Shown here: positions 2,556 through 48,934 of the stretch, piece by piece
Layout of the letters: each line of letters opens with the position of its first letter
Numbering within the stretch: the stretch's first letter is position 1
NCBI GenBank assembly: GCA_002843005.1
Contig: PHEX01000001.1
Span: forward strand, 1-49,230
Length of the DNA stretch: 49,230 bases
Direction: 5' to 3'
Source: Candidatus Anoxymicrobium japonicum
GTDB taxonomy: Bacteria > Actinomycetota > Geothermincolia > Fen-727 > Anoxymicrobiaceae
The notes under the pieces: model-generated
Databases searched by the model: none
What the model saw: only the letters and a program-made list of their open reading frames with translations
Told to the model about the DNA's origin: nothing
Program-made: the position numbers and the translations under genes

Positions 2556-3173
2556 ATGGACGTCGTCGTCGCCTCGAAAAACCACGGAAAGATTCGTGAG
2601 ATCCGGGGAATTCTGGATCTTCCCGGATTGAATTTACTTACCTTTGAAGATCTCGGTGACTGGCCCGAGCGCGAGGAGACGGGCTTGACTTTCCAGGAGA
2701 ACGCGACCATGAAAGCCGCCTGGTTGCTTGACCGTTTCGGGCGCGCGACTCTGGCCGACGACTCGGGGCTCGAGGTGGACTGGTTGGGAGGCCGGCCGGG
2801 CGTGCGCTCCTCGAGATACGCGGGGCCCGAGTGCGATCACGACAGAAACATCGCGAAATTGCTCGAGGAGATGGAAGACGCGCCACCCGCGAGCCGAACG
2901 GCGCGTTTCGTTTGTGTCATCGCGCTCGCGCTGCCAGGCGGTGAAGTGAAGCTTGCTCGTGGTGATTGCGAAGGTGTAATTCTGGGCGAGCGCATAGGCG
3001 TCGGCGGCTTTGGGTACGATTCGATCTTCCAGCCCGCGGGGTTCGGCCAATCCATGGCCCAGTTGTCGCTCGAGGAAAAGAACAGTATCAGCCACCGCGG
3101 CAAAGCGCTTCGCGCGATTCATGCGAAGTTTGCGGTAGACGTAGAGGTGGACGGTAGACCCCAGGAGGATTAA
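2556..3173 (+). CDS. rdgB: RdgB/HAM1 non-canonical purine NTP pyrophosphatase
   Basis: VVASKNHGKIREI at the N-terminus, DDSGLEVD, FGYDSIF and SHRGKAL motifs. The last ~12 codons are encoded by a copy of the GTAGAC repeat element. Confidence 0.9.
   Translation: MDVVVASKNHGKIREIRGILDLPGLNLLTFEDLGDWPEREETGLTFQENATMKAAWLLDRFGRATLADDSGLEVDWLGGRPGVRSSRYAGPECDHDRNIAKLLEEMEDAPPASRTARFVCVIALALPGGEVKLARGDCEGVILGERIGVGGFGYDSIFQPAGFGQSMAQLSLEEKNSISHRGKALRAIHAKFAVDVEVDGRPQED
3132..3162 (+). repeat. GTAGAC-family element copy embedded in the rdgB 3' end
   Basis: gcggtagacgtagaggtggacggtagacccc aligns with gcggtagacggaaaggtagacggtgcctgacccc at 25571-25604. The first 10 nt are identical, with further matches and a short gap. 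Confidence 0.5.
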
Positions 3174-4711
3174 TAGGCGGGGGGAAGTTTGCCGCCACCG
3201 TAGCGCATGTGGTATCTGCGGGCCAGGTAGACGGTGAAACAGAAGAACAGGAGCCACGCGGCCAGAAGCGTGACAGACATCACGCCCGCGGGGTGCAGCA
3301 GCGGGAACACAGAGAGCAGGAACTTTTTCACGACATTGTTGCCCAGGAAGTGCGAGAGGAAGATGTTGTCCGTGCCCTCCATCCCGTATGTCCCTACCAT
3401 GAACCGGAACGCCCAGACAGTTGTCACGACCTGGTAGAGCGCAAGCAGCCCGGCTATTCCCCATGTGACTTTGGATCGCACGCGATCCAGGAAGAGCGCG
3501 ATCGACAACAGGAACATGGGCGCCAGCGGGACCAGGTACCTCTGGACGGGTGCCGCGCCGCCGTTCCACGATTGGAACACTCCAAGCATCAGCGTGTGAA
3601 GCCCGATGCAAACCGGGAAGAATATCCACCACCTCTCCCATTCGAGATCCGTTTTCTGGCAGATGAGCCCGTGCGTGAAGAGGGCGTAGAGTGGCGCGAA
3701 GATCAACAACCCCCACGCCCGGTCGAGGTACAGTCCCGGGATGCCCCAGACTGAGTTCGTCCCCCAGTAGCCGCACTGGAACTTGCTTCCGCCTGACGCG
3801 GTTAGCCCCTGGAGTATCCTGGGCCCGAAGGCGACGCTGGTGAGCGCTATCAGCAACGCCGCGCAGACGACGCTCGGAGCGAGCCAGGCGAAAAGCAGTT
3901 TGAGATCCTTGCCGGGTCTCACAATTAGGAACAAGATGAAGAAGCTGATGGTGATCGCTATGAACTTGGGGTGGAATAGCGTGATCGCGCTACCCGAGAA
4001 TCCCATCAAGGCGGCGTGGAACGGCCTCGCGGATTCCTTCAGGCGCCAGGCGCTCCACAGTCCGAGCGCAACCAGAAACACCCCCACTGTCTCGGGGTAG
4101 ATTTGCCGCGAGTAAAACAGCAACGGATAGCTGAAGAACAAGAACAGCGTAACACCAGCCGCGATCCCACGGCTCACAAATCGATCGGTTAGCAGGAACG
4201 AGAATAACGCCGCCGCGCTCATCAACAGTATCATCGTCATGGCCGCGCCGGGGTAGCCGAACAGCCAGAACCCTGGCAACACCATGATTGAGATAAACAT
4301 GGGGTGGGTTGACACGAACCTCCCGTTCTTGCCATGAGCCACGTGCCACATCGATATGTCCTGCTCGAAGTACGGCCTGTACTGCTGGGCCTTGTAGTTG
4401 TTGGTGAGGAAGACGTCGCCGTCGCGGATGATGCTCTCCGTGATAATGAGGTAATGCGGCTCGTCGCCTTGCGTCGAGGTCGCGCCGCGGAAGCGCGGCA
4501 CGGCAATGAACACAAGCGTGTAGACGATGAATGTCAGAAGGAAGATGACAATTCCCACACGCGTTCGCCCGGGCAGACGCAACCACCTGGCGCCAGGTTC
4601 ATGTGGGGCGTCGGTCACTTTCCACTTTTCTTTCCACTTTTTAAGCGTCACTGTTTCTTGCATACGAATATAAGGTCGAAGGCGCGGGACGGAGCGAGTC
4701 TCCCTGCCCAC
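3170..4711 (-). CDS. polytopic membrane protein, GT-C-like glycosyltransferase candidate
   Basis: 513-aa ORF with more than 10 hydrophobic segments. It has an acidic first-loop motif, GDEPHYLIITESIIRDGD, of the DE-type seen in ArnT/PMT-like enzymes. The GTG start at 4711 follows AGAGG; an alternative ATG lies at 4663. Its stop overlaps the rdgB stop (TTAA). Confidence 0.6.
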   Translation of the reverse strand: MGRETRSVPRLRPYIRMQETVTLKKWKEKWKVTDAPHEPGARWLRLPGRTRVGIVIFLLTFIVYTLVFIAVPRFRGATSTQGDEPHYLIITESIIRDGDVFLTNNYKAQQYRPYFEQDISMWHVAHGKNGRFVSTHPMFISIMVLPGFWLFGYPGAAMTMILLMSAAALFSFLLTDRFVSRGIAAGVTLFLFFSYPLLFYSRQIYPETVGVFLVALGLWSAWRLKESARPFHAALMGFSGSAITLFHPKFIAITISFFILFLIVRPGKDLKLLFAWLAPSVVCAALLIALTSVAFGPRILQGLTASGGSKFQCGYWGTNSVWGIPGLYLDRAWGLLIFAPLYALFTHGLICQKTDLEWERWWIFFPVCIGLHTLMLGVFQSWNGGAAPVQRYLVPLAPMFLLSIALFLDRVRSKVTWGIAGLLALYQVVTTVWAFRFMVGTYGMEGTDNIFLSHFLGNNVVKKFLLSVFPLLHPAGVMSVTLLAAWLLFFCFTVYLARRYHMRYGGGKLPPAY

Positions 4712-5733
4712 ATCAGGCCTCTGTAGATGAATTTATAGCGGGGATTGCTGAACAGCGACACCAGCATGTCCACACGCAGGCCCCTCGGTCTGTACCAGTT
4801 GAGGATCAACTCGAGGTATATCCCGGTCACGTTTCGGACATCGAATCCACTTGCGCGCAGGGTGGCCCTGGCCTCGAGGAGGTTCATCTCCCGGACGTGC
4901 TCCGGGTGCACCGGCATGTCGCGCCGATTGGCCCGGGAGAGCAGGCGGTCGCGGTTGGGTGTCGAGATGATGAGCACGCCGCCGGGCTTGAGCACGCGCC
5001 TCCATTCGGCGAGCGCCGCGGCGGTGTCGCTAACGTGCTCGATTATCTCGCCCGCGTAAACGGTGTCAAAGGATGCGTCCTCAAAAGGAAGAGTGAGGGC
5101 ATCTGCCACTATCCAATTCCACTGCGGCGCTAGGCCGCGCATCTTTTCCATGGCGGCGGAGTCGAGATCGCAACACGTGATGTCGAGATCCCATTTGTGG
5201 TTGATAAGGAAGAAGATGCTGTATCCCGAGCCGACGTCGAGCACCTTGCTGCCGACTGGGATGTTCTCGCGGAATATCCGAAAGAGCGATCGCAGGCGCG
5301 CCTCGTGAAAGCTATTGAAGAATGGGTGCTGGACCACGTACTCCTGCTGGTGGCCCTCAGCCTGGTAGTACCGCTCGAGCGCGCTGGTGTCAGTGACTTT
5401 GACGGCAAACTCCATGGCGTTTTCGGCGCACGTGAGACGGAGGATCATCTCGGGGCGCGTCATCATGTTGTCGCGGTGCGAGACGCTTGCCAGCGACGGT
5501 TGGCGCCGGCCTCCATCCACGGATAACGACAGGATGTCGTCTTTTGAGGCAAGCCAGTCAATATCAACTGACAGGCGTCCCGGCCCGGCGCCGTTAAACG
5601 TCCATGTGCCGACGAGGCTGTCGGGGCCATCGACGCCGGCGTACAGCACGGATACATCGAGAGATTTCTCGAGTCCCGGCCAATCCGGGAGTTCGAAGCT
5701 CACGCGCGATGTGGAAGCGTCGAGGTTCGTCAT
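4648..5733 (-). CDS. class I SAM-dependent methyltransferase with a ~150-aa beta-rich N-terminal domain
   Basis: Motif I is VLDVGSGYS, with GGVLIISTPNRD after motif II. The ORF track extends to 6105, but that Arg-rich extension overlaps the upstream GT4 gene. ATG at 5733 gives an ATGA overlap with the stop of 5730-6809. Confidence 0.85.
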   Translation of the reverse strand: MTNLDASTSRVSFELPDWPGLEKSLDVSVLYAGVDGPDSLVGTWTFNGAGPGRLSVDIDWLASKDDILSLSVDGGRRQPSLASVSHRDNMMTRPEMILRLTCAENAMEFAVKVTDTSALERYYQAEGHQQEYVVQHPFFNSFHEARLRSLFRIFRENIPVGSKVLDVGSGYSIFFLINHKWDLDITCCDLDSAAMEKMRGLAPQWNWIVADALTLPFEDASFDTVYAGEIIEHVSDTAAALAEWRRVLKPGGVLIISTPNRDRLLSRANRRDMPVHPEHVREMNLLEARATLRASGFDVRNVTGIYLELILNWYRPRGLRVDMLVSLFSNPRYKFIYRGLMWAGRLAPSRAFDLIFVCKKQ

Positions 5734-9210: not shown

Positions 9211-10077
9211 ATGAAGATACTTTTGACCGGCAGCAACGGACAGCTTGGCGCCGATTTCCGGCGCGTGGCCGGGCATGAGCACGAGGTCGTCGCCCACGAT
9301 CTGGATCTCGACATCACGGATCGCCGGGCGGTCAAGGCGCGCGTGTCCGAGGTCGAGCCTGACATTGTCGTGAACGCGGCCGCTTACACCAACGTGGATG
9401 CGGCCGAGTCCGATGAGCTCAACGCCTACAATGTGAACGCGCTGGGGCCCTGGAACCTCGCGCTCGCGTGCCAGGCGGCGGGGGTTCCTCTACTGCACGT
9501 GTCAACCGACTTTGTCTTCAGCGGCGAGTCCGACACCCCTTACACCGAGTTCGATCTGCCAGATCCCAGTGGCGTTTATGGGAAGAGCAAGTACGCGGGC
9601 GAGCTGTACGTCACCGGCCTGCTCGACCGCTATTACATCTGCAGAACGTCGTGGCTATACGGCGTGGGTGGAGGCAACTTTGTGAAGACCATGCTCACCG
9701 CAGGCAGAGAGCGCAACGAGGTGAAGGTCGTTGACGACCAGGAGGGCGCTCCCACATATTCACTCGACCTGGCGCGCAAGCTCCTGGAGATAATCGCGAC
9801 CGGAGCTTACGGCGTCTATCACTTGAGCAACCAGGGCAGCATCACCTGGAGACAGTTTGCTTGCGACATCTTCGAGATCGCTGGAATAGATACGCCCGTC
9901 TTGCCGATAACCACCCGCGAGCTTGACAGGCCCGCGCCGCGCCCGCGGTACTCGACAATGAGAGGGCTCGCGCTCGAGATGGCGGGCATGGCCCCGATGC
10001 GCCCGTACCGCGAGGCGCTTGAGCAGTTCATCTTAGAGGATATTCCTTCCTTCCATGCTGAGGTGAGCGCGCCTTGA
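9211..10077 (+). CDS. rfbD: dTDP-4-dehydrorhamnose reductase
   Basis: MKILLTGSNGQLG Rossmann start, STDFVFSG and catalytic YGKSKYAGE. Length 288 aa. Confidence 0.92.
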   Translation: MKILLTGSNGQLGADFRRVAGHEHEVVAHDLDLDITDRRAVKARVSEVEPDIVVNAAAYTNVDAAESDELNAYNVNALGPWNLALACQAAGVPLLHVSTDFVFSGESDTPYTEFDLPDPSGVYGKSKYAGELYVTGLLDRYYICRTSWLYGVGGGNFVKTMLTAGRERNEVKVVDDQEGAPTYSLDLARKLLEIIATGAYGVYHLSNQGSITWRQFACDIFEIAGIDTPVLPITTRELDRPAPRPRYSTMRGLALEMAGMAPMRPYREALEQFILEDIPSFHAEVSAP

Positions 10078-11360: not shown

Positions 11361-11843
11361 ATGGTTTTCATGCGGAACAACGGCATCGACGTAGAACAGG
11401 TGATGGAAGAGGTTAACCGCGCGATCGCTTCTCCGCACACACTGCTCGCCGATTTCTGGAAAGAGAAGCGTCCCACCGCGCCGTGCGTTTCCTTTTTGTA
11501 TCCGCCGCACTCCCGAACGTTGAGGGTCAACCTCGACATGGTCAGCAGGAACTGGGAGGTTGATCCCGAGTTCGAGGTGGGTTCGCGCAGACGCGTCGCC
11601 GGCCGGCTCGTGATAGCTTTCAAGAAGCTGACACGTGGCCTGCTGCGCTGGTACGTAAACCCCATCGTCCACCAGATCCGCAAGTTCAACATGTTGGTCA
11701 CGCGCACTTTATTTGACCTGGCTAACAACTTGGACGAGGTCTCAGGCAGGGTCATCGAACTGGAGAAGCAAGAAGTCGAGCGCAGGCTCAAAGAGCTCGA
11801 GCAAAAAATCTCGCGGCTCGAGGATGGGAGCGCCAGCTCATGA
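11361..11843 (+). CDS. coiled-coil protein, stand-alone copy of the methyltransferase N-terminal module
   Basis: 160 aa. NGIDVEQVMEEVNRAI and LLRWYVNPIVHQIRKFN match the N-domains of 22410 and 25652. It ends in the heptad-like VIELEKQEVERRLKELEQKISRLE. No methyltransferase domain follows. ATGA overlap with the next gene. Confidence 0.6.
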   Translation: MVFMRNNGIDVEQVMEEVNRAIASPHTLLADFWKEKRPTAPCVSFLYPPHSRTLRVNLDMVSRNWEVDPEFEVGSRRRVAGRLVIAFKKLTRGLLRWYVNPIVHQIRKFNMLVTRTLFDLANNLDEVSGRVIELEKQEVERRLKELEQKISRLEDGSASS

Positions 11844-27998: not shown

Positions 27999-28018
27999 CC
28001 TGGCGAGAGGAACACACC

Positions 28019-39655: not shown

Positions 39656-39687
39656 TAATGACGAAAGACGGACAGGGGAACAACAGA

Positions 39688-40875: not shown

Positions 40876-40955
40876 ATGTTTACCCATAGTCATATTGATG
40901 TCACAAAGCAACGAGCTGTCGCGCATGATTGGCGCTTAACGGCACGGAGGTGTTT

Positions 40956-41930: not shown

Positions 41931-42037
41931 CGGATATTGACGGAAACCTGGCGCGGATGCAGCGGCGTTCGCTTGCGAGTATTTATGGAATGGAGCACTT
42001 AGATTGAGGAGAGTAATCGTCGCATGAATAGAGTGTT

Positions 42038-43081
42038 ATGAAGTTGATTGTCGTCATGGGCCGTGAGCCCGCGTACACCAGAAACAAGGTCATACTCGAC
42101 GGCCTCAGGGCTGAGGGCGTCGAGCTTGTCGAATGCGTCGATTCGGCGGGCAACTATCCCGCGCGTTTTCTCAAGGTGATGGGGAAGTTCCTTGCCGGGT
42201 CTCGCGGGGACAGCGACGCAGTGTTCGTCGGTTTCTTCGGGCAGCCACTGATGCCTTTTGTGAGCAGGCTTACCCGCAAGCCAGTCGCGCTCGACGCTTT
42301 CCTTTCGGGCTACGACACGATGTGCTTCGACAGAAAAAAGTTCCCACCCGACTCCGCGCGCGGCAGGCTATTTTATCGTCTCGACAAATCCGCCTGCGAG
42401 AGAGCAGACGTGGTTCTCCTCGACACGAACGCGTATGTCGATTACTTCGTGGAGACGTTTGGGCTTGCCCGTGAGAAGTTCAGGCGTGTTTTTGTCGGGG
42501 CTGAGACGAACGTTTTCTATCCGAGAGACGACGGAAAAAATGACGGCGCATTCAACGTTTTCTACTACTGCACGTTCCTCCCTGTTCACGGGGTCGAACA
42601 CGTGCTTGATGCCGCTCGCATCCTGGAAGGCGAGCGGGACATAAGGTTCAAGGTCGTTGGAGCGCAGAAGGACAAAGCCGGCACCCTGTCTGGCAACATA
42701 GAACTCGTGGAATGGATCGATTACAGCAAGCTTCCGGAATCGATTGCGGCGGCCGACATCTGCCTCGGCGGCCACTTCTCAAACGTCGCGAAGGCCAGCC
42801 GGGTGATAGCGGGAAAGACGTTCCAGTTTCTCGCAATGAGGAAGGCGACCATCGTGGGCGACAACCAGGCGAACAGGGAGCTTCTGACGCACAAGAAAGA
42901 CACACTGATGGTAAAAATGGCGGACTCCGAATCGCTTGCGAGCGCAATTCGCGAACTCAAGCAAGATGAGGGGCTGCTGAATCGGATAGCAGGCGAGGGT
43001 TACCGCACCTTTGAAGAAAACTGCACACCGGAGATCATCGGGGCGCAGGTGGCTCGAATCATCAGGGAAATCATCGGCTAG
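42038..43081 (+). CDS. GT-B fold glycosyltransferase (divergent GT1/GT4-like)
   Basis: 347 aa with a two-Rossmann-like layout. MKLIVVMGREPAYTRNKVILDGL N-terminus and KASRVIAGKTFQFLAMRKATIVGD in the C-half. No clean E-x7-E. Confidence 0.62.
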   Translation: MKLIVVMGREPAYTRNKVILDGLRAEGVELVECVDSAGNYPARFLKVMGKFLAGSRGDSDAVFVGFFGQPLMPFVSRLTRKPVALDAFLSGYDTMCFDRKKFPPDSARGRLFYRLDKSACERADVVLLDTNAYVDYFVETFGLAREKFRRVFVGAETNVFYPRDDGKNDGAFNVFYYCTFLPVHGVEHVLDAARILEGERDIRFKVVGAQKDKAGTLSGNIELVEWIDYSKLPESIAAADICLGGHFSNVAKASRVIAGKTFQFLAMRKATIVGDNQANRELLTHKKDTLMVKMADSESLASAIRELKQDEGLLNRIAGEGYRTFEENCTPEIIGAQVARIIREIIG

Positions 43082-44127
43082 CTGTTGATGGCGTCGGAGA
43101 GCCTTGTTACATAACGGCGGAGCATGTTTCGCGCGTCTGTGTCGTTACATATTTCGTTTTTGAACCGGCGCCTTTTCCTGACGCATGCAGGGATTCTCAT
43201 CAAGCCCTGCACAGTTCCTCTGATAACCGCGAGAAGCAGCGATGCGGTAGAGAGGTTTTCTCTGTATGACTCCAGCCGTCGGCCGCCCCCGCGGGAGGTG
43301 AGTCCGGCAACGACCAAACTGGCGAATCTGTACAAAGTGAACAGCGGCGAAACCGCGATGTCGCGCGTCGGATAGTTTTTTGCGAGAACACACATGCGGT
43401 TTCTCTCCACCAGGGAGATTTTTCGGGCCGGGTTTCCGCCGCTGGCGCCGTGCCGGTGCCTGCACATCGCCTCGGGGCACAGAAGCGAGCGATACCCCGC
43501 GAGTCGCCCCCGCCAGGCGATGTCGACGTCCTCCATGTAGGCGAAGAAATCCTCGTCGAAAAGACCTGTTCTTTCAAGTGCGGATCGCCTGTAAAGAGAT
43601 GCGCCAGCGCAGGTTCCGAAAATATCCGTTTCACCGTCGTATTGCCCGATGTCGGCATGGTTGATGCCCCTGTTGAACGCGGAGCCATCGCGCCAGATCA
43701 CTATGCCCGCATTGTTGAATATCTTTTTGCCCGAACCCTCATCGAAGAAGTACATTTTCGGCTGGCACGACCAGACATCGCCTGACGATGAGTTCATGGT
43801 GTCGACGAGCGACTCCAGGCAATTCTTGTCCAGTACGACGTCGTTGTTTAGCGTGAAAACGTACTCGGCGCTTTTTCTTTCGAGGATGTGTTCAATGACA
43901 CGGTTGTTGCCTGCGGCAAACCCCAGGTTGACAGGGGACCTTATAACCTTGATCTGAGGGAACCCGCGTTCGATGAGTTCAACGGAACCGTCGGTTGAAC
44001 CGTTATCGAGGAGCAGAACCGAGAATTGTTTGAACGTCTGCCGCTCGAGTGCCGCTAGGCACTCGGCGAGATACGCCTCCCCGTTGTAGTTGACAATCAC
44101 GACCGCGACGCGGTCTGCTTTCTCCAT
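43078..44127 (-). CDS. GT2 family glycosyltransferase (rhamnosyltransferase-like)
   Basis: ATG 44127 (MEKADRVAVVIVNYNGEAYL), LLDNGSTDGS, TLNNDVVL and YMEDVDIAWR. The ORF track N-terminal extension to 44292 is unsupported. Confidence 0.85.
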   Translation of the reverse strand: MEKADRVAVVIVNYNGEAYLAECLAALERQTFKQFSVLLLDNGSTDGSVELIERGFPQIKVIRSPVNLGFAAGNNRVIEHILERKSAEYVFTLNNDVVLDKNCLESLVDTMNSSSGDVWSCQPKMYFFDEGSGKKIFNNAGIVIWRDGSAFNRGINHADIGQYDGETDIFGTCAGASLYRRSALERTGLFDEDFFAYMEDVDIAWRGRLAGYRSLLCPEAMCRHRHGASGGNPARKISLVERNRMCVLAKNYPTRDIAVSPLFTLYRFASLVVAGLTSRGGGRRLESYRENLSTASLLLAVIRGTVQGLMRIPACVRKRRRFKNEICNDTDARNMLRRYVTRLSDAINS

Positions 44128-44227
44128 CACTACCCTGCTTTCTTCTGTGTCAACATGAATGAGACACCTGCTCCCCAATAGTTTACTGTACAACTGAGCA
44201 AGTTGAGGGCGGGAAGAAGGCCTCCCG

Positions 44228-44251
44228 TTGAACCGCGTCTCTAAAGGCGCG
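44228..44251 (+). repeat. conserved 24-nt box ttgaNccgcgtctctaaaggcgcg, copy 2
   Basis: See 29683-29706. It lies in the divergent intergenic region between 44127 (-) and 44387 (+). Confidence 0.55.
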
Positions 44252-44386
44252 ATTTCGTTTGGCCACAAGGCGGTCCGAGATGACGCCCACATCCGATCTC
44301 TCCCTTTCAGCGGAATAGCCGGCTTGCTGGCGCTGTCCCATTGGGATAATGTGTCATATACAACAGTCAGAGTCAGGGAGGCTCAC

Positions 44387-45268
44387 GTGAAGATCAACAA
44401 AGTCAGCGTCATAGTGCCCACATACAACGAAGAAGAGGCCATCGCCGGCGACCTCGAGGTCATCCTCGAGACCATGGAGGCTTCGCGGTGGGAGTATGAA
44501 GTCATTGTAGTCAACGACGGCTCGACCGACAGAACCGCCGAGGTTGTCAGGGGTTTCGAGAACGTGAAGCTTCTCGAGCACAGGGAGAACCGTGGCGGCG
44601 GGTTCGCGCGCAATACCGGTATAAAGGCCGCCACGGGAGATGTGGTCATGGTCACAGATGGTGACGGCACCTACCCGAACCAGGACATGCCGAAGCTCCT
44701 CGAGATTATGGAAAACGAAAACCTCGACATGGTGGTGGGAGCGCGCACCAAAGAGTCGGGGACGATGCGCTTCCTGCGGATGCGCGCGAAGTGGTTCATT
44801 CGCAAGCTTGCCGAAAAGCTTTCCGGCTTCAGCATCCCTGACCTCAACTCGGGCCTGCGTGCGATGAAAAAGGACGTGTTCATGCCGTTCATGGACATCC
44901 TGCCGTGGGGGCACTCCTGGGTTTCGACGATCACGCTCGCGATGTTGTCCTCCGGTTACAACGTTGACTTTGTGGACATCGACTATTTCCCGAGGAAGGG
45001 CGCCAGCACTTTTCATCCGATCAAGGATACTTACAGCTACATCACCCTGGTGATCCGCACGGTGACGTGGTTCAATCCTCTCAAGGTGTTCTTCCCACTG
45101 GCGCTCCTCACCATAGCGACCGGTATTGTCAAACTGATAGCAGACTCCATAATCCACAACTATTTCCGCGTGACTGGCGTCACCATCATCGTGCTACTGG
45201 TGGGCATACAACTGGTGGCGCTCGGCCTGCTCGCCGATCTTGTTGTGCAACGCGTTAGACGACCGTGA
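44387..45268 (+). CDS. GtrB/ArnC-like polyprenyl-phosphate glycosyltransferase (GT2 with two C-terminal TM helices)
   Basis: GTG 44387 lies 5 nt after AGGGAGG. VSVIVPTYNEEEAI, VVNDGSTDRT, NRGGGFARNTG and VTDGDGTYP. C-terminal FFPLALLTIATGIVKLI and VTIIVLLVGIQLVALGLLADLV. Confidence 0.85.
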   Translation: MKINKVSVIVPTYNEEEAIAGDLEVILETMEASRWEYEVIVVNDGSTDRTAEVVRGFENVKLLEHRENRGGGFARNTGIKAATGDVVMVTDGDGTYPNQDMPKLLEIMENENLDMVVGARTKESGTMRFLRMRAKWFIRKLAEKLSGFSIPDLNSGLRAMKKDVFMPFMDILPWGHSWVSTITLAMLSSGYNVDFVDIDYFPRKGASTFHPIKDTYSYITLVIRTVTWFNPLKVFFPLALLTIATGIVKLIADSIIHNYFRVTGVTIIVLLVGIQLVALGLLADLVVQRVRRP

Positions 45269-45281: not shown

Positions 45282-46526
45282 ATGTCAGCGTCATCTCTCG
45301 AGAAACGAATAGCGGATCGCACCGCTGTGGTTGGCGTTGTCGGGTTGGGATACGTCGGGATCCCGCTCGCGAGCCGCGTCATGGAGTCCGGTTATCCGTT
45401 GAGGGGCATCGACAAGTACGCAGGCGGCGAACGCCTGGAGGAGCTCGGCGAGCTTGGCATAGAAGCATCTAATGATTTTGACGTGCTGCGCGACTGTGAC
45501 ATCGTTTTGATTTGCGTGCCAACCCCGCTCGCGGAAGGGCAACTGCCCGACACTTCCTTTATATCTGATGCGACGGTTGACATTTGCGCGAATCTCGCGC
45601 GCGACGCCGGTCCTCGGCTGGTTGTTTTAGAAAGCACGTCTTACCCGGGCACGACAAGAGAGATAATGCTCCCGATTTTCGAGGACAATGGCTTCCAATT
45701 AGGTGAGGATCTCTTGCTGGCGTTTGCGCCCGAGCGCGTCGATCCGGGCACGTGCCCGTTGCCTTACAGGGAAATCCCTCGCGTTGTAGGCAGCCTCGAC
45801 GAAGCATCAGGTCGTGTGGCGCATGCTTTCTACAGCACGATTGTCGATGAGGTCGCGCTTGTCTCCACGCCTGAGGTCGCCGAGACGGCAAAGCTGCTCG
45901 AGAATATCTTCCGCGCCGTGAACATCGCGCTCGTCAATGAGATGGCCCTGCTTTGCCGGCGCATGGACATTGACATCTGGGAGGTTGTCGAGGCCGCGTC
46001 GACCAAGCCGTTCGGGTTCATGTCCTTCAAGCCGGGCCCCGGCCTTGGCGGCCACTGTATCCCGGTCGATCCGTTCTACCTCGCTTGGAAGGCGAAGAAA
46101 TATGATTTCTACCCGGAGTTCATCGAGCTCGCCGGAAAGGTCAACAGGGCTATGCCGTTCCACGTGGTGGAGTGGGTGTCGGAGGTTTTGAACGATGCCG
46201 GCAAGAGCATTAAATCTTCACGTGTGCTGGTGGTGGGTGTCGCGTACAAGGAGAAAGTCGCTGACACACGCGAGTCCCCCGCGCTCAAGATTATGGAGCT
46301 CCTGGCGGAACGTGGTGGCGACGTGATTTACCACGACCCGTTCGTGGGCGTCGTCGAGGTGGGCGGGAAAGAGTACGCTTCGACGCCACTGAACCACGAT
46401 GCGCTTGCTAGCTGCGACTGTGTCCTCATTGTCACCGCGCACCCAAACATCGACCTCGACCTCATCGCGTCATCGGGGGTACCGGTTGTTGACACGCGGA
46501 ACGCCCTGGGGCGAGGAGGCAAGTGA
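45282..46526 (+). CDS. UDP-N-acetylhexosamine 6-dehydrogenase family (WbpA/WecC-like nucleotide-sugar dehydrogenase)
   Basis: VGVVGLGYVGIPLA Rossmann motif, catalytic-Cys motif GLGGHCIPVDPFYLAWKAKKY and VGVAYKEKVADTRESPA. Confidence 0.88.
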   Translation: MSASSLEKRIADRTAVVGVVGLGYVGIPLASRVMESGYPLRGIDKYAGGERLEELGELGIEASNDFDVLRDCDIVLICVPTPLAEGQLPDTSFISDATVDICANLARDAGPRLVVLESTSYPGTTREIMLPIFEDNGFQLGEDLLLAFAPERVDPGTCPLPYREIPRVVGSLDEASGRVAHAFYSTIVDEVALVSTPEVAETAKLLENIFRAVNIALVNEMALLCRRMDIDIWEVVEAASTKPFGFMSFKPGPGLGGHCIPVDPFYLAWKAKKYDFYPEFIELAGKVNRAMPFHVVEWVSEVLNDAGKSIKSSRVLVVGVAYKEKVADTRESPALKIMELLAERGGDVIYHDPFVGVVEVGGKEYASTPLNHDALASCDCVLIVTAHPNIDLDLIASSGVPVVDTRNALGRGGK

Positions 46527-46532
46527 GGAGCG

Positions 46533-47852
46533 CTACGGCGCCGAGATCCTGTTGAGCTCATCCGCGATATTCGAAACCATGTTTAAGCTGCTGTACCTGG
46601 AGATTTTCTCGACGTCGCCATTGTACGCAAGCGTGCCCGTACGCTCGAACTCATCAAGCCAGTTCCCGAGGATGCCCGTGACGTCATCTGTGTTCCTGGC
46701 GATCACGCCGACGCGAGTGCTCTTCATGAACTCGTTTGACTTTTTGCCGGGAGTGGGCATCAGGGCGAGCACCGGGCGGCGCGCGCCAAGGTACTCAAGC
46801 AGCTTACCAGATTGATATCTCTCGCCTCCCGGTTCCCACTGGATGTAAAAGAGAGCGCTCGCGCCTTTTTGCCGGGCGATCGATTCTTTGTGAGGGACGA
46901 GCCCGAGCACGTTGACGTTGGATTCGACTCCTTGCTTGCGCGCGAGCTCGAGGAGAAGTTTCCCGTCGATGCCCGCGTAGTCGAACTGCATCATCGAGAT
47001 GTCTCTGCCAGCGTCACGCAGCCGGCGCAGCGCCTCGAGCAGCGGCCGGGGATCGCGGCTGGGGTAATTGAATCTTCCGGCAAAGAGGATGTTGAGCTTC
47101 AACCTGTCGCTCTCGATCGCCGCGACGCTGTTGAAATCATCTTCGTCGAACCCGTTGGGCTGCAGAACGGCATGTCCCTGTGGCGCCGTGACGCCAAGTT
47201 GGTCGATGATGCCGTCTGCCACCGCGATAATGCCATCGGCGCGCCCGAGCGTCAGCCGTTCGAGCTTCTTGTCCAAAGTGGCTGGAACGCGCCCGCGCGA
47301 TTCATTTATTTTGTTTGTCCATGGGTCTCGCATGTCGGCGAGCCATGGCGTGCCGAAGCGCTTCTTGACCGCGGCTGCGATGAGGTGTGTCGTTTCGGGA
47401 GGAGAAGAACTGTAGACGGCCGAGGGCTTGAATCGCTCGCAGAGCTTGAACGCTTGCTTGCGCCCGAATGGGTACCAATCGATCATTCTGTCAGGGATGC
47501 CAATCCACTGGCTCATGATATCGCTCGCTCGCGCCTTGAGACTGTCCGAGAACACGGCGTTTTCCAGTACTGTCAATTGAGACGAGTGCTGCTCGATCGA
47601 CATGCCCATCGTTTTCTTGAGCCGGAACGCGAGGTCGGGATTGGCGGTTCGGAATACGGTGACACCCGCCAGATCACCGTCAGCTTCATCGCACGCTATG
47701 ACCGCGAGCGTGTTTTTCGAGACCGTGAGGACGATCGGCGCCCATCCCAACGATGGCAAGTACTTCGCGATTTTTAGCGTCCTCAGGCTTCCGATGCCTC
47801 CGATCGGCGGATAGTAGTAGATGATCATGAGGAGTTTCTTGCCGGAGATCAT
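46533..47852 (-). CDS. GT-B fold glycosyltransferase (GT4-like)
   Basis: ATG 47852 is in an ATGA overlap with the wecB stop. KKLLMIIYYYPPIGGIGSLRTLKIAKYL N-terminus. The ORF track extension to 48050 overlaps wecB. Confidence 0.72.
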   Translation of the reverse strand: MISGKKLLMIIYYYPPIGGIGSLRTLKIAKYLPSLGWAPIVLTVSKNTLAVIACDEADGDLAGVTVFRTANPDLAFRLKKTMGMSIEQHSSQLTVLENAVFSDSLKARASDIMSQWIGIPDRMIDWYPFGRKQAFKLCERFKPSAVYSSSPPETTHLIAAAVKKRFGTPWLADMRDPWTNKINESRGRVPATLDKKLERLTLGRADGIIAVADGIIDQLGVTAPQGHAVLQPNGFDEDDFNSVAAIESDRLKLNILFAGRFNYPSRDPRPLLEALRRLRDAGRDISMMQFDYAGIDGKLLLELARKQGVESNVNVLGLVPHKESIARQKGASALFYIQWEPGGERYQSGKLLEYLGARRPVLALMPTPGKKSNEFMKSTRVGVIARNTDDVTGILGNWLDEFERTGTLAYNGDVEKISRYSSLNMVSNIADELNRISAP

Positions 47853-48934
47853 AGTCTCTCTCCAAGTATGTCCAGTATCCTCTCGCTGGCGTGCCCGTCC
47901 CATTGATGCGGGATCCGCCCTTGCCTGCCGCCCCCGTCGATAACGTCCACTGCAGTTTGCAGCAGCAACGCGCAATCCTCGGTGACTATAAGGTTCGTTC
48001 CGAACTCGACGGTCACAAGGAGCTCCGTTTCGTGACGAAGCGTCAGGCATGGCACGCCCAGAAAGGTAGTTTCTCCCTGGATGCCGCCAGAATCAGTGAT
48101 GACCAGGCGCGCGCTGGACATAAGGGCGAGAGAATCGATGTAGCCGACAGGGTCGATCGACTTTATTTTGTCGCATGCGATGACGTCCTCGCACCTTGCG
48201 CTCTTTATGTTCTTCAAGGTGCGGGGATGGATGGCAAACACAACTTTCAGGCTTTCCGAGACGCCGCGAAGCATCACCAGGATATCGCGCAACCTGCCGG
48301 GCTCGTCGACATTGCTCGGTCGGTGCAAGGTCACGAAGCAGTACTCCCCGGAAGCCAGCCCGAGTCGGCTCACGACGTCGCTCGCCTTCACTTTGTCCAT
48401 TACCAAGACGAGCGAGTCTATCATCGTGTTGCCGACCAGGAAGATAGAGTCAACGCCACGCCCTTCTCTGGCCAGGTTCCTGTTGCCGCTTTCCTCGGTG
48501 GTGAACAGGAAGTCGGCCAGGGCGTCGGTGGCTATCCGGTTCAGTTCCTCGGGCATGCCTCTGTTGAAGCTGCGAAGGCCGGCCTCGACGTGGGCGAGCG
48601 GGATGAACATCTTCGAGGCGGCGATGGCCGCGCCGAGTGTGCTGTTGACGTCCCCTACGACTATCACGGCGTCCGGCGTTTCCATGGCGAGATCGGCCTC
48701 GAGGAGCTTGATTACCTCGGCGCACTGGTAGCCCTGAGTGCCGGAGCCGACCTCCAGGTTGATGTCGGGCTGAGGAATGCCGAGCGCCATGATGAAATCG
48801 TCGCTCATGGAGTAGTCGTAATGCTGGCCCGTGTGCACAAAGCGAACCGGCACGCCCCTGCGTTCGCATTCCCTGATGACAGGGGCGACCTTCATGAAGT
48901 TAGGACGCGCTCCGGCGACGATAGTAAGTCTCAA
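47849..48934 (-). CDS. wecB: UDP-N-acetylglucosamine 2-epimerase (non-hydrolysing)
   Basis: TTG start. RLTIVAGARPNFMKVAPV, HVEAGLRS, TLHRPSNVD and TDSGGIQGETTFLGVPCLTLR. Confidence 0.92.
   Translation of the reverse strand: MRLTIVAGARPNFMKVAPVIRECERRGVPVRFVHTGQHYDYSMSDDFIMALGIPQPDINLEVGSGTQGYQCAEVIKLLEADLAMETPDAVIVVGDVNSTLGAAIAASKMFIPLAHVEAGLRSFNRGMPEELNRIATDALADFLFTTEESGNRNLAREGRGVDSIFLVGNTMIDSLVLVMDKVKASDVVSRLGLASGEYCFVTLHRPSNVDEPGRLRDILVMLRGVSESLKVVFAIHPRTLKNIKSARCEDVIACDKIKSIDPVGYIDSLALMSSARLVITDSGGIQGETTFLGVPCLTLRHETELLVTVEFGTNLIVTEDCALLLQTAVDVIDGGGRQGRIPHQWDGHASERILDILGERL

Follow-up and report, generated by a model that had tools for sequence, protein, structure and literature searches.

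Does the dense array of glycan genes in an uncultured, deep-branching actinobacterium, a Candidatus Geothermincolia (Actinomycetota) MAG, serve a single envelope polymer, or do several pathways lie side by side? The window analysed here is the entire MAG contig (49,230 nucleotides), of which the glycan region occupies about 46 kb (Table 1); its 37 ORFs were scanned with Pfam, and NCBIfam was also searched. A preliminary description had pictured a polymer built in the cytoplasm, exported by Wzm/Wzt and decorated outside by GT-C enzymes, and knew of no locus with this density and mix. By analogy with known systems, the best reading is a two-part wall-polysaccharide line, in which an O9a/CPA-style methyl-capped backbone with rhamnose would leave via Wzm/Wzt and be modified outside by GT-C enzymes that draw on lipid-P-linked sugars or oligosaccharides.

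Gene content of the window

The window encodes six polytopic GT-C or GT-C-family proteins, 11 soluble GT2/GT4 glycosyltransferases (including two GT2+GT4 two-domain proteins), two polyprenyl-P-sugar-synthase-like GT2s and one Wzm/Wzt pair. The synthases and the single exporter had been recognised before, but the earlier count of about 13 cytoplasmic GT2/GT4 enzymes beside the synthases was too high, 13 being the total with the synthases included. RmlD, the Wzt_C domain, the five methyltransferases, the two paralogous regulator and GT2/GT4 pairs, the DUF5719 repeat protein and the UDP-ManNAc(A) module were absent from the preliminary description. The operon structure is tight, with many overlaps of 4 to 17 nt, and GC3 is uniform, with GT-C5 (0.62) below the other genes.

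Table 1. Features of the glycan region, with positions in the window.
Feature	Position	Strand	Remarks
GT-C1, ArnT/PMT-like glycosyltransferase	3170..4651	-	493 aa in public call, longest ORF to 4711; 9 TM
Class I SAM methyltransferase	4648..5733	-	~361 aa; Methyltransf_11 74 bits
Two GT4 glycosyltransferases	5730-6809, 6806-8038	-	Glycos_transf_1; 4-nt overlaps; conserved in all relatives
Conserved soluble protein, 345 aa	8022..9059	-	Ala/Glu-rich helical N-terminal half
RmlD, dTDP-4-dehydrorhamnose reductase	9211..10077	+	RmlD_sub_bind 311 bits
GT4, translationally coupled to RmlD	10074..11318	+	Glycos_transf_1 98 bits, Glyco_trans_4_4; 74-83% identity in relatives
Pair 1: 160-aa coiled-coil protein and GT2+GT4 two-domain GT (623 aa)	11361..13711	+	GT2 88 bits
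GT-C2, PMT_2-family GT-C	13698..15365	+	PMT_2 47 bits; at least 7 TM
GT-C3, DUF2079-family polytopic protein	15337..16893	+	DUF2079 234 bits, full length; 8 TM
GT-C4, divergent YfhO-family GT-C	17186..19555	+	Large extracytoplasmic C-terminal domain, terminal TM helix; 10 TM
Synthase A, polyprenyl-P-sugar-synthase-like GT2	19552..20262	+	GT2 113 bits; 0 TM; 4-nt overlap with GT-C4
Wzm permease	20325-21173	+	ABC2_membrane 57 bits; 6 TM
Wzt ATPase with C-terminal carbohydrate-binding domain	21188-22423	+	ABC_tran 75 bits, Wzt_C 103 bits
Pair 2: coiled-coil N-terminal methyltransferase and two-domain GT2/GT4	22410-23708, 23724-25520	+	MetW/Methyltransf_23; Glycos_transf_1 46 bits
Methyltransferase, coiled-coil N-terminus	25652-26929	+	Methyltransferase Pfam match
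Methyltransferase, C-terminal coiled coil	26926-27909	+	Methyltransferase Pfam match
Methyltransferase, long C-terminal coiled-coil region	28019-29686	+	Methyltransferase Pfam match
Two GT4 glycosyltransferases	29824-31227, 31330-32523	+	Glyco_trans_1_4, Glyco_trans_4_4, Glycos_transf_1; 71-76% identity in L006
DUF5719 repeat protein	32664..35084	+	N-terminal TM anchor (1 TM), four or five ~105-aa tandem repeats; DUF5719 63-66 bits, several stretches
GT-C5, PMT/PMT_2-family GT-C	35089..36714 (ORF from 34936)	+	PMT_2 53.5 bits, PMT (PF02366) 33.6 bits; 8 TM
GT-C6, large GT-C	36942..39533 (ORF to 39620)	-	Four extra N-terminal helices, C-terminal CBM-like beta domain; 17 hydrophobic segments
AAA_14/DUF4143 ATPase	39658..40875	+	Pfam; observed only among assemblies of this organism
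Three soluble GTs, right-hand module (40929..44292)	GT2 40956-41930, GT4 42044-43081, GT2 43078-44127	+, +, -	Pfam
Synthase B, polyprenyl-P-sugar-synthase-like GT2, GtrB/GacI/WpsA-like	44228..45268	+	GT2 117 bits; two C-terminal TM helices
NDP-sugar 6-dehydrogenase	45327..46526	+	TIGR03026 350 bits, above cutoff
GT4 glycosyltransferase	46533..47852	-	Glyco_trans_4_4, Glyco_trans_1_4
WecB, non-hydrolysing UDP-GlcNAc 2-epimerase	47849..48895	-	Epimerase_2 303 bits; TIGR00236 286 bits (cutoff 210); last gene

Core gene content, namely RmlD, Wzt_C, five methyltransferases (several with coiled coils) and two coiled-coil/two-domain-GT pairs, points by analogy to a capped, length-controlled backbone of the O9a/CPA type. 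The two-domain GTs of the pairs are paralogous (32% over 555 aa, E 1e-101 by BLASTP), and that of Pair 1 is a candidate polymerase. Its 160-aa partner resembles the N-termini of the methyltransferases at 25652 (E 3e-9) and 22317 (E 4e-7), while residues 240-463 of the Pair 2 methyltransferase match the methyltransferase structure PDB 3dli. Heptad-rich Glu/Lys/Leu stretches occur in the methyltransferases of 25652..29686, a trio conserved in two relatives (L004 and L006). At the left end, the 485-aa ORF of the first methyltransferase is over-extended, its orthologs having 353-364 aa. The 345-aa protein gave no match in Pfam or NCBIfam, and its orthologs (54-71% identity) occupy the same position in relatives.

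The best NCBIfam matches of Wzm/Wzt were TagH and galactan Wzt/RfbE. Both synthases scored best against polyprenyl-P-sugar synthases, in all cases below the equivalog cutoffs: AglJ, Dol-P-hexose transferase, ArnC and PpgS for synthase A, and AglJ, Dol-P-hexose transferase, PgfS and ArnC, over the full length, for synthase B. Only the latter, which has an ortholog of 82% identity in L011, carries the GtrB-typical pair of C-terminal TM helices. The neighbouring dehydrogenase is closest to UDP-ManNAc dehydrogenases, although those equivalogs stay below their own cutoffs. The DUF5719 protein is predicted to be an extracytoplasmic envelope protein; its gene contains 315-nt tandem repeats (33408-34624), and the protein has a 68% identical ortholog in L006 and a faint match to the Slr4 S-layer protein.

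The polytopic GT-C proteins

All six polytopic proteins lie where they had first been placed. Between 7 and 17 TM segments are predicted per protein, and each carries an acidic motif after TM1. Their GT-C-like character is borne out by Pfam families in five of the six (PMT_2 in three, DUF2079 in one and a divergent YfhO in one) and by AlphaFold models of GT-C1 and GT-C6, the two modelled as the weakest sequence assignments. Pfam found no match in GT-C1 (3170-4711), and NCBIfam gave a weak one to the LA_3751/3752 putative GT. Its AF2 model (3170-4651; pLDDT 82.8, pTM 0.88) was compared with the PDB by Foldseek, and the best ~28 matches were all GT-C: ALG12, ArnT, Pmt4, AftB, STT3, AftA, PimE and PglB. 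Directly after TM1, G62-D63-E64..Y67 is invariant. GT-C6, whose PMT_2 match (27.5 bits) is barely over the cutoff, likewise gave a model (36942-39533; pLDDT 75.8) with GT-C proteins as its best 20 matches (AglB, STT3, ArnT, AftA and PglB), and its C-terminal domain matches BcsB, CBM6 and xylanase CBMs. The GT-C fold of both is thus confirmed at the level of predicted structure.

GT-C3, with an LDTAIY motif after TM1, is a putative GT-C, resting on its Pfam family, its topology and the clan membership by which we take DUF2079 to belong to GT-C. In GT-C4 the YfhO match (38 bits) covers the C-terminal 60 aa only, and the assignment is made because 29 of 30 distant relatives match Pfam YfhO (best E 2.4e-32). 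A start at 35089 retains TM1 of GT-C5, which is lost in the public call at 35320; the YDHNFF loop motif falls at the start of that short call. The six had been called unrelated, which does not hold for GT-C1 and GT-C6, which are distantly homologous (hhalign probability 97%, E 3e-11), nor for GT-C2 and GT-C5, related by BLASTP (E 9e-8). Between the profiles of GT-C2 and GT-C1 the hhalign probability is 64%.

Conservation in relatives

The co-localised genes form a conserved cluster rather than a chance grouping, since at least six independent relatives known from metagenomes keep the gene order, with 55-83% identity at the amino-acid level. Related genomes and HMM and structure searches had been proposed beforehand as checks, and they returned genes kept together and GT-C membrane proteins, respectively. 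The order from the GT4 at 6806 to the methyltransferase ending at 27909 is conserved in an Anoxymicrobiaceae MAG (61-83% identity), and in five relatives (L009, L010, L013, L017 and L018) PMT_2 comes after the left block, with rmlA/B/C adjacent. The blocks are separable, being shuffled or split in some genomes: the GT-C6 ortholog of L006 sits elsewhere, within a Wzt/methyltransferase/GT4/DUF5719 block, and L007 has no PMT_2 after the left block and only a remnant of RmlD.

One 84-kb relative contig, compared on either side of its middle 28 kb, has orthologs of left-end and right-end genes about 49 kb apart. These include GT-C1, the GT4 at 46533..47852 (43% identity) and the core of the right-hand module (GtrB-like enzyme 82%, dehydrogenase 77%, WecB 65%). 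The part at 40929..44292 is variable, as its three GTs lack close orthologs in the right module of that relative. That module carries, besides transposase fragments, a Wzx-like flippase of its own. The AAA_14/DUF4143 ATPase, which sits where the core gives way to the right-hand module, probably has no part in the pathway. The sequence analysis establishes domain identities, gene content and paralogy, together with the GT-C folds and the conservation of co-localisation.

A possible pathway, its alternatives and its parallels

We consider it somewhat probable that the locus works as a single modular assembly line making a heteropolysaccharide of the cell envelope, with a rhamnose-containing backbone that would be exported and then decorated outside. 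All chemical steps are inferred, as are the eventual acceptor and any sugars beyond rhamnose and ManNAc(A). Polyprenyl-P would be primed by a PGT encoded elsewhere, and cytoplasmic GT4s with the two paralogous two-domain polymerases would build the backbone, for which L-rhamnose is suggested because RmlD is in the window and RmlA/B/C adjoin the locus in relatives. Each polymerase gene is preceded by that of a coiled-coil partner (the 160-aa protein or a coiled-coil methyltransferase); these partners and three further methyltransferases may be responsible for O-methylation or capping of the chain and, probably, for its length, the role of WbdD in E. coli O9a (PMC3482155), and the methyltransferases can be likened to those of Pseudomonas CPA rhamnan, made with a bifunctional GT and an ABC transporter (PMC3560663, PMC7820976). 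The carbohydrate-binding domain of Wzt would recognise the finished, capped chain for export. The two GtrB/GacI-like GT2s would load sugars onto polyprenyl-P; synthase B, the WecB/dehydrogenase pair and neighbouring GT2/GT4s may make a polyprenyl-P-linked ManNAc(A) oligosaccharide, modelled on the lactococcal WpsA-F scheme. With donors moved outward by a flippase from outside the window, the six GT-C enzymes would add side chains, or polymerise the second glycan and attach it to the exported backbone, and the CBM of GT-C6 would hold the acceptor, as a GT-C with a CBM acts on ABC-exported O-antigen (PMC11127046). Attachment to peptidoglycan would fall to an LCP-type ligase with its gene elsewhere.

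Three of these steps rest on unseen genes, as the window holds no PGT, flippase or ligase. In agreement with the preliminary description, Pfam detected no PGT, Wzx/Wzy, Wzy_C ligase or LCP domain in the 37 ORFs, and no flippase of any type (GtrA, MATE, SMR, Wzx) was found within the window, where intergenic gaps are too small to hide such genes. This absence is weaker evidence than it appears, because the window is a whole contig ending at an assembly break (two independent assemblies both end ~300-380 bp beyond WecB), because the relative's equivalent module has a Wzx-like flippase, and because model systems encode WecA/GacO, LCP ligases and the CflA flippase away from the locus (PMC9574508). 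Systems that pair an ABC-exported rhamnan with GT-C enzymes likewise have their flippase gene elsewhere (PMC9574508, PMC8035078).

Co-localisation is no proof of a single product. Possible, though rather doubtful, is an island of independent pathways: a capped rhamnan-type polymer (RmlD, GTs, methyltransferases, Wzm/Wzt), PMT-like protein O-glycosylation from a polyprenyl-P-sugar donor with DUF5719 proteins as possible substrates, and a separate ManNAc(A) polymer (secondary wall polymer or teichuronic-acid-like) from the right-hand module. The ATPase gene and strand switches that set this module apart, the relative's flippase and transposase fragments, the block shuffling in L006 and L007, the PMT match of GT-C5 directly after the DUF5719 gene and its lower GC3 all favour such an island, as do SLH-domain proteins encoded by relatives, SLH domains being known to bind ManNAc-containing secondary wall polymers. 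However, one ~50-kb region holds the blocks together in a relative (44-82% identity), translational coupling links GT-C2, GT-C3, GT-C4 and synthase A with backbone genes and Wzm/Wzt, and GT-C6 moves with the core; with a GtrB-like primer enzyme but without a PGT of its own, the right module fits a side-chain role better than a free-standing polymer.

Glycosylation of a surface or S-layer protein appears unlikely. Here a methyl-capped rhamnan-type glycan would be assembled on a lipid carrier and leave through Wzm/Wzt, on the model of Geobacillus/Paenibacillus S-layer loci, and transferred en bloc by an OST-like GT-C to, for example, the DUF5719 protein. The G. stearothermophilus S-layer glycan is indeed a methyl-capped rhamnan with Wzm/Wzt, and the DUF5719 gene with its faint Slr4 match lies inside the locus; in relatives, though, DUF5719 occurs in fusions with wall hydrolase domains (M23, SpoIID, NlpC/P60), more in keeping with a module associated with the wall than with a dedicated glycoprotein substrate. 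The oligosaccharyltransferases AglB and STT3 are the best structural matches of GT-C6 (E 2e-8 to 1e-7), but ArnT, AftA and ALG score nearly equally, TM-scores are only 0.3-0.5, its CBM-like domain is unlike the OST peptide-binding domain, and no Wzy_C-type O-oligosaccharyltransferase occurs among the ORFs scanned. Very unlikely, in our view, is a membrane-anchored LM/LAM-like lipoglycan, started on a glycolipid by GT4s and extended outside by GT-Cs using the polyprenyl-P-sugars that the Ppm1-like GT2 would supply. The host is actinobacterial, synthase A lacks TM helices like the GT2 catalytic domain of mycobacterial Ppm1, and GT4 and GT-C genes are many, with no PGT or ligase in the window. 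Yet neither PimA/PimE-type nor GT87 matches were found among the window ORFs (Pfam/NCBIfam), and a cap-binding-CBM Wzt, RmlD and terminator-like methyltransferases with coiled coils are characteristic of polymers that are polyprenyl-PP-linked and ABC-dependent (PMC3482155).

The core of the logic first proposed, cytoplasmic synthesis, Wzm/Wzt export and outside GT-C decoration, fits all findings, whereas the claim of an undescribed locus type does not stand. The mycobacterial arabinogalactan cluster (Rv3779-Rv3809c) has Wzm/Wzt (Rv3783/Rv3781), GlfT1/2, AftA, EmbC/A/B, AftB, the GT-C Rv3779 and lipid-linked donor synthesis, the same mix as here with a similar GT-C count. Wzm/Wzt, galactan and arabinosyltransferases have been treated together (PMC13649706, PMC11127046), and lactococcal cwps, streptococcal GAC/SCC and enterococcal EPA likewise combine an ABC-exported rhamnan, GtrB/GacI-like synthases and several GT-C enzymes (PMC9574508, PMC8035078, PMC11754754). 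As this logic is known from streptococci, lactococci and mycobacteria, the locus is an unusually rich example of it and not a new kind of system.

The six GT-C membrane proteins

Six-frame ORF listing together with Pfam and NCBIfam scans recognized 37 genes in the window, the main features of which are collected in the table. All six polytopic proteins named in the preliminary description are present, with 7-17 hydrophobic segments in each, and their proposed identity as GT-C glycosyltransferases was largely upheld, five of the six being placed in GT-C families by Pfam. As GT-C1 (3170-4711) had no Pfam match and GT-C6 a low one, structure models were made for these two weakest cases; GT-C2 to GT-C5 rest on the Pfam families PMT_2, PMT, DUF2079 and YfhO.

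Features of the window, with the matches on which they were recognized
Feature	Position (nt)	Strand	Match or setting
GGTAGACGGAGAGGTAGACGGTGCCTGACCCC element	119-150		upstream of murI
murI, MBL-fold protein, RNase PH, RdgB/Ham1 (housekeeping)	173-3173		
GGTAGACGGAGAGGTAGACGGTGCCTGACCCC, degenerate copy	3134-3154		
GT-C1	3170-4711	-	
Pair 1, 160-aa ORF	11361-11843		
Pair 1, GT2+GT4 gene	11840-13711		
GT-C2	13698-15365	+	PMT_2, 47 bits
GT-C3	15337-16893	+	DUF2079, 234 bits
GT-C4	17186-19555	+	YfhO, 38 bits, final 60 residues only
Synthase A (GT2)	19552-20262		
Wzm	20325-21173		ABC2_membrane, 57.5 bits
Wzt	21188-22423		ABC_tran, 74.8 bits
Pair 2, methyltransferase	22410-23708		
Pair 2, GT2+GT4 gene	23724-25520		
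GGTAGACGGAGAGGTAGACGGTGCCTGACCCC, one-base variant	25573-25604		inside the glycan locus, after the second GT2/GT4 gene and before the following methyltransferase
CCGCGTCTCTAAAGGCGCGG motif, copy 1	29683-29718		upstream of the GT4 gene starting at 29824
DUF5719 gene	32664-35084		repeats at 33408-34624
GT-C5	35089-36714	+	PMT_2, 53 bits, and PMT, 34 bits
GT-C6	36942-39620	-	PMT_2, 27.5 bits
AAA_14/DUF4143 ATPase	39658-40875		
CCGCGTCTCTAAAGGCGCGG motif, copy 2	44228-44263		annotated start of synthase B, upstream of the alternative start 44387
Synthase B (GtrB-like GT2)	44228-45268		

Both AF2 models are helical bundles. The GT-C1 model (493-aa product of 3170-4651, from 33 homologs) reached a pLDDT of 82.8 and a pTM of 0.88, and its best PDB matches in Foldseek, about 28, were all GT-C proteins (ALG12, ArnT, Pmt4, AftB, STT3, ALG9, AftA, AglB, EmbA/B, PimE and PglB). 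The GT-C6 model (863-aa product of 36942-39533; pLDDT 75.8) had GT-C proteins as all of its top 20 matches. For both proteins the top matches were exclusively GT-C, at a probability of 1.0 and TM-scores of 0.3-0.5. The C-terminal beta-rich domain of GT-C6 resembles carbohydrate-binding modules (BcsB, CBM6 and xylanase CBMs), and a GT-C core with a C-terminal CBM is an architecture known from Emb, AftD and GT136 enzymes (PMC11127046). About four extra helices (residues 1-100) precede the GT-C core of this protein and carry the invariant, membrane-embedded Glu40 and Glu62. The sole match of these helices was to DUF1616, below threshold (E 0.008), and a fused GtrA-like flippase domain was rejected as unsupported; a donor-handling or flippase-like role for them would be pure speculation.

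The catalytic residues of GT-C enzymes sit directly after TM1, and an acidic motif was found at this place, the first extracytoplasmic loop, in all six proteins. It reads GDEPHY in GT-C1 (D63/E64 invariant) and ERDVSPY in GT-C6 (D133/Y137 invariant), the two being paired by hhalign, whereas ADSYYF (GT-C2), LDTAIY (GT-C3), ETDFIRQFYP (GT-C4) and YDHNFF (GT-C5) were recognized by inspection; conservation was checked in GT-C1, GT-C4 (D40 invariant) and GT-C6, and GT-C2, GT-C3 and GT-C5 were judged by inspection only. The public gene call for GT-C5, starting at 35320, drops TM1 and has the motif at its very start, so that the start at 35089 chosen in the preliminary description, which keeps TM1, is to be preferred. 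The six proteins had also been described as unrelated, but hhalign shows GT-C1 and GT-C6 to be distantly homologous (probability 97%), their catalytic loops being aligned, and GT-C2 and GT-C5 match each other in BLASTP.

GT-C4 matches PF09586 only at profile positions 776-835 (38 bits; cutoff 28.5). An exhaustive HMMER search with it gathered 43,761 representative relatives, and because 29 of 30 aligned full-length relatives (24-34% identity) match Pfam YfhO, GT-C4 is regarded as a divergent member of this family. The DUF2079 protein, GT-C3, is a putative GT-C by its Pfam family, its topology and the GT-C clan to which Pfam presumably assigns DUF2079. Single-sequence hhalign of this protein against the GT-C1 and YfhO profiles returned nothing. 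Searches of the PDB by sequence or profile were uninformative for GT-C1, GT-C6, DUF2079, GT-C5 and the YfhO family, the useful PDB matches having come from the fold comparison only. No published literature on DUF2079 or DUF5719 was found.

Backbone, export and sugar-donor genes

The core of the locus holds several components beyond those listed in the preliminary description: RmlD, a Wzt_C domain, five methyltransferases and two pairs of coiled-coil and GT2/GT4 genes. RmlD was matched in the window at 311 bits (Pfam), and RmlA, RmlB and RmlC adjoin the orthologous block in five loci of relatives (L007, L009, L013, L017 and L018). The single Wzm/Wzt exporter was confirmed, as two adjoining genes. 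Residues 251-382 of Wzt form the PF14524 Wzt_C domain (103 bits against a cutoff of 30.4), which is also present in the orthologs of L001-L003 and L006. Several of the five SAM methyltransferases have long coiled-coil-like regions by inspection, and the Pfam scan of the window found no kinase domain on the methyltransferases. One methyltransferase ORF (4648-6105) is over-extended; with the ATG at 5733 as its true start it encodes 361 aa, as its orthologs do.

The two gene pairs are paralogous, a coiled-coil protein gene preceding a two-domain GT2+GT4 gene in both. Homology to the N-termini of two of the methyltransferases was seen for the 160-aa ORF of pair 1, and identity between the two GT2+GT4 proteins is 32% over 555 residues. 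PDB searches with the two-domain GT gave generic GT2 matches only (chondroitin and heparosan synthases), and those with the methyltransferase a structural-genomics methyltransferase only, a WbdD-like match being absent. In combination, a Wzt CBM, multi-domain polymerases and coiled-coil methyltransferases or terminators are the signature of cap-dependent ABC-transporter pathways, such as those for E. coli O9a (PMC3482155) and, in Pseudomonas, for the CPA rhamnan (PMC3560663, PMC7820976). An N-terminal module with a W-Y-x-x-P...Q...F-N motif followed by a coiled coil is common to 11361-11843, 22410-23150 and 25652-26300, and was seen by eye in a 345-aa protein (8022-9059). A two-domain GT2/GT4 gene follows directly downstream of two of the genes with this module, those for the 160-aa protein and for the methyltransferase 22410-23708. 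This module, which has no Pfam family, could be a new polymerase-docking or chain-length module.

Eleven soluble GT2/GT4 genes were counted, which with the two polyprenyl-P-sugar-synthase-like GT2s make 13 in total; the preliminary description had put the soluble ones alone at about 13. For its two synthase-like GT2s, AglJ, dolichyl-P hexose transferase, ArnC, PpgS and PgfS are the best matches, although all fall below the NCBIfam equivalog cutoffs; the pair of C-terminal TM helices seen in GtrB-type enzymes is present in synthase B and missing from synthase A. The stop of GT-C4 overlaps the start of synthase A by 4 nt. Lipid-phosphate-linked sugars are the predicted donors of the GT-C enzymes, as the two synthase-like genes lie near those of the GT-C proteins. 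In the right-hand module (40.9-48.9 kb), the WecB equivalog exceeds its cutoff with 286 bits, and the closest matches of an NDP-sugar dehydrogenase are UDP-ManNAc dehydrogenases, so UDP-ManNAc is implied and UDP-ManNAcA probably as well.

In agreement with the preliminary description, Pfam matched none of the ORFs of the window to a PGT, Wzx/Wzy, Wzy_C ligase or LCP domain, and since intergenic gaps do not exceed 295 nt there is no room for an overlooked extra gene. Neither Glycos_transf_4 nor Bac_transf, which would mark a WecA-type initiating PGT, was matched in any window ORF; by analogy with model systems, such an enzyme may be encoded elsewhere in the genome. Dedicated flippases (GtrA/GtcA, Wzx, MATE, SMR) were likewise absent from the window by Pfam. 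This has a precedent in L. lactis, where a GtrA-type flippase common to several systems is encoded at another locus (PMC9574508).

Extent and conservation of the locus

All genes from 3170 to the end of the window are glycan-related except for the AAA_14/DUF4143 ATPase gene. The latter, seen only in same-organism assemblies, lies between GT-C6 and the right-hand module and interrupts the run of glycan genes. The housekeeping genes on the left have an order that is also found in mycobacteria. Gene overlaps of 4-17 nt are frequent across the locus, and Rfam and tRNA scans of the window gave no matches. A G-rich gap of 295 nt (16894-17188), also without an Rfam match, separates the DUF2079 and YfhO-like genes and is about 107 nt long in the Anoxymicrobiaceae relative; a public 61-aa ORF call within it (16912-17097) is not hydrophobic and probably spurious. 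Horizontal transfer of the right-hand module was considered, but GC3 is uniform (0.69-0.83) across the locus with the exception of GT-C5, and so gives no clear signal of it.

The contig JAEMOG010000502.1 (49,146 bp) of MAG GCA_017973855.1 corresponds closely to the window, and identical stretches are present in assemblies from JGI, ENA and Logan. Two independent same-organism assemblies end 300-380 bp past WecB (window 48896-49230; L015 1-377), the longer assembly, of 50.8 kb, stopping at the same place on the right. In one relative (L011 12730-14049), transposase fragments and a Wzx-like (Polysacc_synt) flippase gene adjoin WecB. At the window's right end a repeat has probably truncated the locus, and the absence of a flippase accordingly holds for the window only.

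A genome-collection scan returned two loci, and metagenome scans with GT-C6 and GT-C5 returned no relatives. Within the species-level genome collection, the window is most closely related to a Candidatus Anoxymicrobiaceae MAG (Actinomycetota, class Candidatus Geothermincolia). The preliminary description had considered that relatives might carry these genes scattered in unrelated loci. Instead, the blocks stay together. Locus L004, from the Anoxymicrobiaceae MAG, follows the gene order of window 6806-27909 with amino-acid identities of 61-83%, and in L006 a GT-C6 ortholog (52% identity) lies within a Wzt/methyltransferase/GT4/DUF5719 block at a different position; GT-C6 moves with the core. 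The left block is kept in five further loci (L009, L010, L013, L017 and L018), in the order PMT_2, GT2/GT4, an ORF of about 155 aa, GT4, RmlD, a protein of about 320 aa without assigned function, GT4, GT4, methyltransferase and GT-C1. On its other flank these loci have rmlB, rmlC and rmlA with DUF5719 proteins in place of the housekeeping genes of the window.

Both ends of the locus are found together on the 84-kb contig ERZ27294311:k141_64631 (ENA), where a GT-C1 ortholog (76%) and the right-hand module lie about 49 kb apart, against about 43 kb in the window, the comparison covering the contig on either side of its middle 28 kb (34.8-63.3 kb). Identities in the module are 82% for the GtrB-like GT2, 77% for the dehydrogenase, 65% for WecB and 43% for the end GT4, and its accessory GTs differ between relatives. 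That relatives keep these genes together indicates that the super-locus is real. The more distant L007 has the left block without PMT_2 after it and with RmlD reduced to a 56-aa remnant, an arrangement which shows the locus to be modular. There (GCA_020723485.1 DYIU01000003.1, 3064-5564), an ApbA/ketopantoate-reductase-like gene is part of the operon, and a B12-radical SAM gene stands where other relatives have PMT_2.

Related systems, possible roles and accessory elements

The Rha-CWPS systems of Lactobacillales (L. lactis cwps rhamnan+PSP, S. pyogenes GAC gacA-L, S. mutans SCC and E. faecalis epa) share with the window an rmlD at the head of the backbone operon, followed by GT4. As is proposed here, their backbone is rhamnose-based and exported by an ABC-2 transporter, and the genes for the PGT and the LCP ligase lie at other loci, as does, in L. 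lactis, that for CflA, a flippase of the GtrA type (PMC9574508, PMC8035078, PMC11754754). GacI/WpsA/GtrB-like GT2s load sugars onto polyprenyl-P in these systems, cytoplasmic GTs may extend a lipid-P-linked oligosaccharide, and the attachment or polymerisation of substituents outside the membrane falls to several GT-C enzymes that are unrelated in sequence. GT-C genes, however, number one to about four there compared with six in the window, which also differs in its Wzt C-terminal CBM and its five methyltransferases, several of them with coiled-coil-like regions; to our knowledge, cap recognition is not known in the lactobacillal systems. A GacH/LtaS-type glycerol-phosphate transferase and a GacJ-like activator were not found in the window. 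The lactobacillal and the window sequences are not orthologous, with generic GT4/GT2 NCBIfam matches only, and the present host is a deep-branching actinobacterium.

In the mycobacterial and corynebacterial arabinogalactan (AG) cluster (Rv3779-Rv3809c, about 35 kb), Wzm/Wzt occurs together with GT2 polymerases of the cytoplasm, the synthesis of lipid-linked donors and some six GT-C enzymes (AftA, EmbA/B/C, AftB and Rv3779). It is thus comparable in density and mix, contrary to the preliminary description, which knew of no such locus. Besides the actinobacterial host, the proposed likeness extends to multi-domain GT2s making a lipid-linked polymer in the cytoplasm, Wzm/Wzt export, elaboration outside by GT-C enzymes from polyprenyl-P-sugars, C-terminal CBMs on some GT-C enzymes and an RmlD needed for a rhamnose-containing linker (PMC13649706, PMC11127046). 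By Pfam and NCBIfam, the window lacks UDP-galactopyranose mutase (Glf), GlfT1/2 (a marginal GlfT1 match of 25.7 bits on one GT2), a UbiA-type DPPR synthase, DprE1/E2 and Emb/Aft (Arabinose_trans-family) GT-C enzymes, its GT-C families being PMT_2, DUF2079 and YfhO; it differs further in the CBM on Wzt and the many methyltransferases. The locus resembles the AG pathway in operation and is not a member of it.

Cap-dependent O-antigens (E. coli O9a WbdA/WbdD/Wzm/Wzt and the Pseudomonas CPA D-rhamnan) share the Wzt carbohydrate-binding module and have likely counterparts in the window for their coiled-coil methyltransferase/terminator proteins, their multi-domain GT polymerases and, for CPA, their rhamnan chemistry (PMC3482155, PMC3560663, PMC7820976, PMC11231755). 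The present host, in contrast, is expected from its phylum to be monoderm, with no WaaL ligase and no methyltransferase kinase domain in the window, and the backbone module is joined with six GT-C genes as against one in known O-antigen examples (PMC11127046). The 4-nt overlap of synthase A with the YfhO-family GT-C4 is the classic CsbB-YfhO arrangement of three-component systems (GtrA/GtrB/Gtr* and CsbB/GtcA/YfhO; PMC5836110, PMC8035078), although a GtrA/GtcA gene is absent from the window and synthase A is without the C-terminal TM helices of GtrB/CsbB. The locus works like the Rha-CWPS, AG and cap-dependent O-antigen systems and is an ortholog of none. It reveals no new mechanism and is a rich example of an already known type of system; what is unusual is the CBM-bearing Wzt together with a battery of coiled-coil methyltransferases and six GT-C proteins from three families (PMT_2/ArnT-like, DUF2079 and YfhO).

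In the proposed pathway, a PGT encoded elsewhere would prime polyprenyl-P, on which the GT4 enzymes and the two GT2/GT4 polymerases would assemble a rhamnose-containing backbone. The methyltransferases and coiled-coil partners would methylate or cap the chain and set its length, and the finished chain would be recognized by the Wzt CBM and exported by Wzm/Wzt. In parallel, the two GT2 synthases would produce polyprenyl-P-sugars, and synthase B, WecB, the dehydrogenase and neighbouring GTs may make a polyprenyl-P-linked oligosaccharide containing ManNAc(A). The latter route would have a parallel in the lactococcal scheme of WpsA-F/WpsG/WpsI/WpsJ, where a glycan flipped by Wzx is polymerised by GT-C enzymes and joined by them to an ABC-exported rhamnan (PMC9574508). 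The six GT-C enzymes would then decorate or join the glycans outside the membrane. This export of a capped backbone with outside GT-C decoration is judged probable by a narrow measure: the gene inventory, folds, paralogy and co-localisation are established, and the chemistry is predicted throughout. The interpretation in the preliminary description is partly supported.

The same genes might instead represent independent, co-located pathways, one for a capped rhamnan, one for O-glycosylation of proteins by PMT-type enzymes and one for a ManNAc(A) polymer of its own, which seems unlikely but quite conceivable. Glycosylation of an S-layer or other surface protein, with GT-C6 as an OST-like transferase, would fit the best fold matches of that protein, AglB and STT3; ArnT and AftA score nearly equally, however, and its C-terminal domain is CBM-like. 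This explanation is judged very improbable. An LM/LAM-like lipoglycan is more improbable again.

No published work on the cell envelope of Candidatus Geothermincolia was found. The locus offers a concrete and testable picture of a major surface glycan of this class and an entry point to its envelope. With building inside, ABC export and outside finishing by many GT-C enzymes brought together in a deep-branching actinobacterial lineage, one locus unites the cap recognition by Wzt known mainly from Gram-negative O-antigens with the multi-GT-C elaboration known from mycobacteria and lactic acid bacteria. For glycoenzymology it also provides new material, namely a DUF2079 protein, a divergent YfhO, a CBM-bearing GT-C and the coiled-coil methyltransferase/regulator pairs, and it tentatively links the DUF5719 domain to wall biology. 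A bolder and decidedly doubtful extension of the capped-backbone reading would make the product the principal wall heteropolysaccharide of Geothermincolia, an AG-like scaffold arisen independently or early in Actinomycetota. It would consist of a methyl-capped rhamnose backbone, exported by the CBM-bearing Wzt, elaborated by six GT-C enzymes of three families and joined to a ManNAc(A) glycan, with DUF5719 targeting hydrolases (M23, SpoIID, NlpC/P60) and beta-propeller proteins to the polymer.

The DUF5719 protein itself, encoded between the GT4 genes and GT-C5, is membrane-anchored, with 806 aa and 4-5 tandem repeats of 105 aa. In relatives (L007, L009, L013, L017 and L018), DUF5719 is fused to FG-GAP beta-propellers, Peptidase_M23, SpoIID, and NlpC/P60 with SLH, and these fusion genes always adjoin the glycan locus. 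The domain may be a wall- or glycan-associated module.

Two short repeated elements were also observed. The 32-nt element GGTAGACGGAGAGGTAGACGGTGCCTGACCCC, for which chance predicts no repetition, is absent from the fetched loci of relatives; its internal copy lies inside a hairpin at 25555-25625 (RNA MFE -35.6 kcal/mol, z -4.2), and the element resembles a REP-like element, terminator or operator specific to this organism. The 36-nt motif CCGCGTCTCTAAAGGCGCGG, with an 8-bp GC hairpin, occurs twice and could be a shared regulatory or 5'-UTR element, although its fold z-scores are weak (-1.3 to -1.9).
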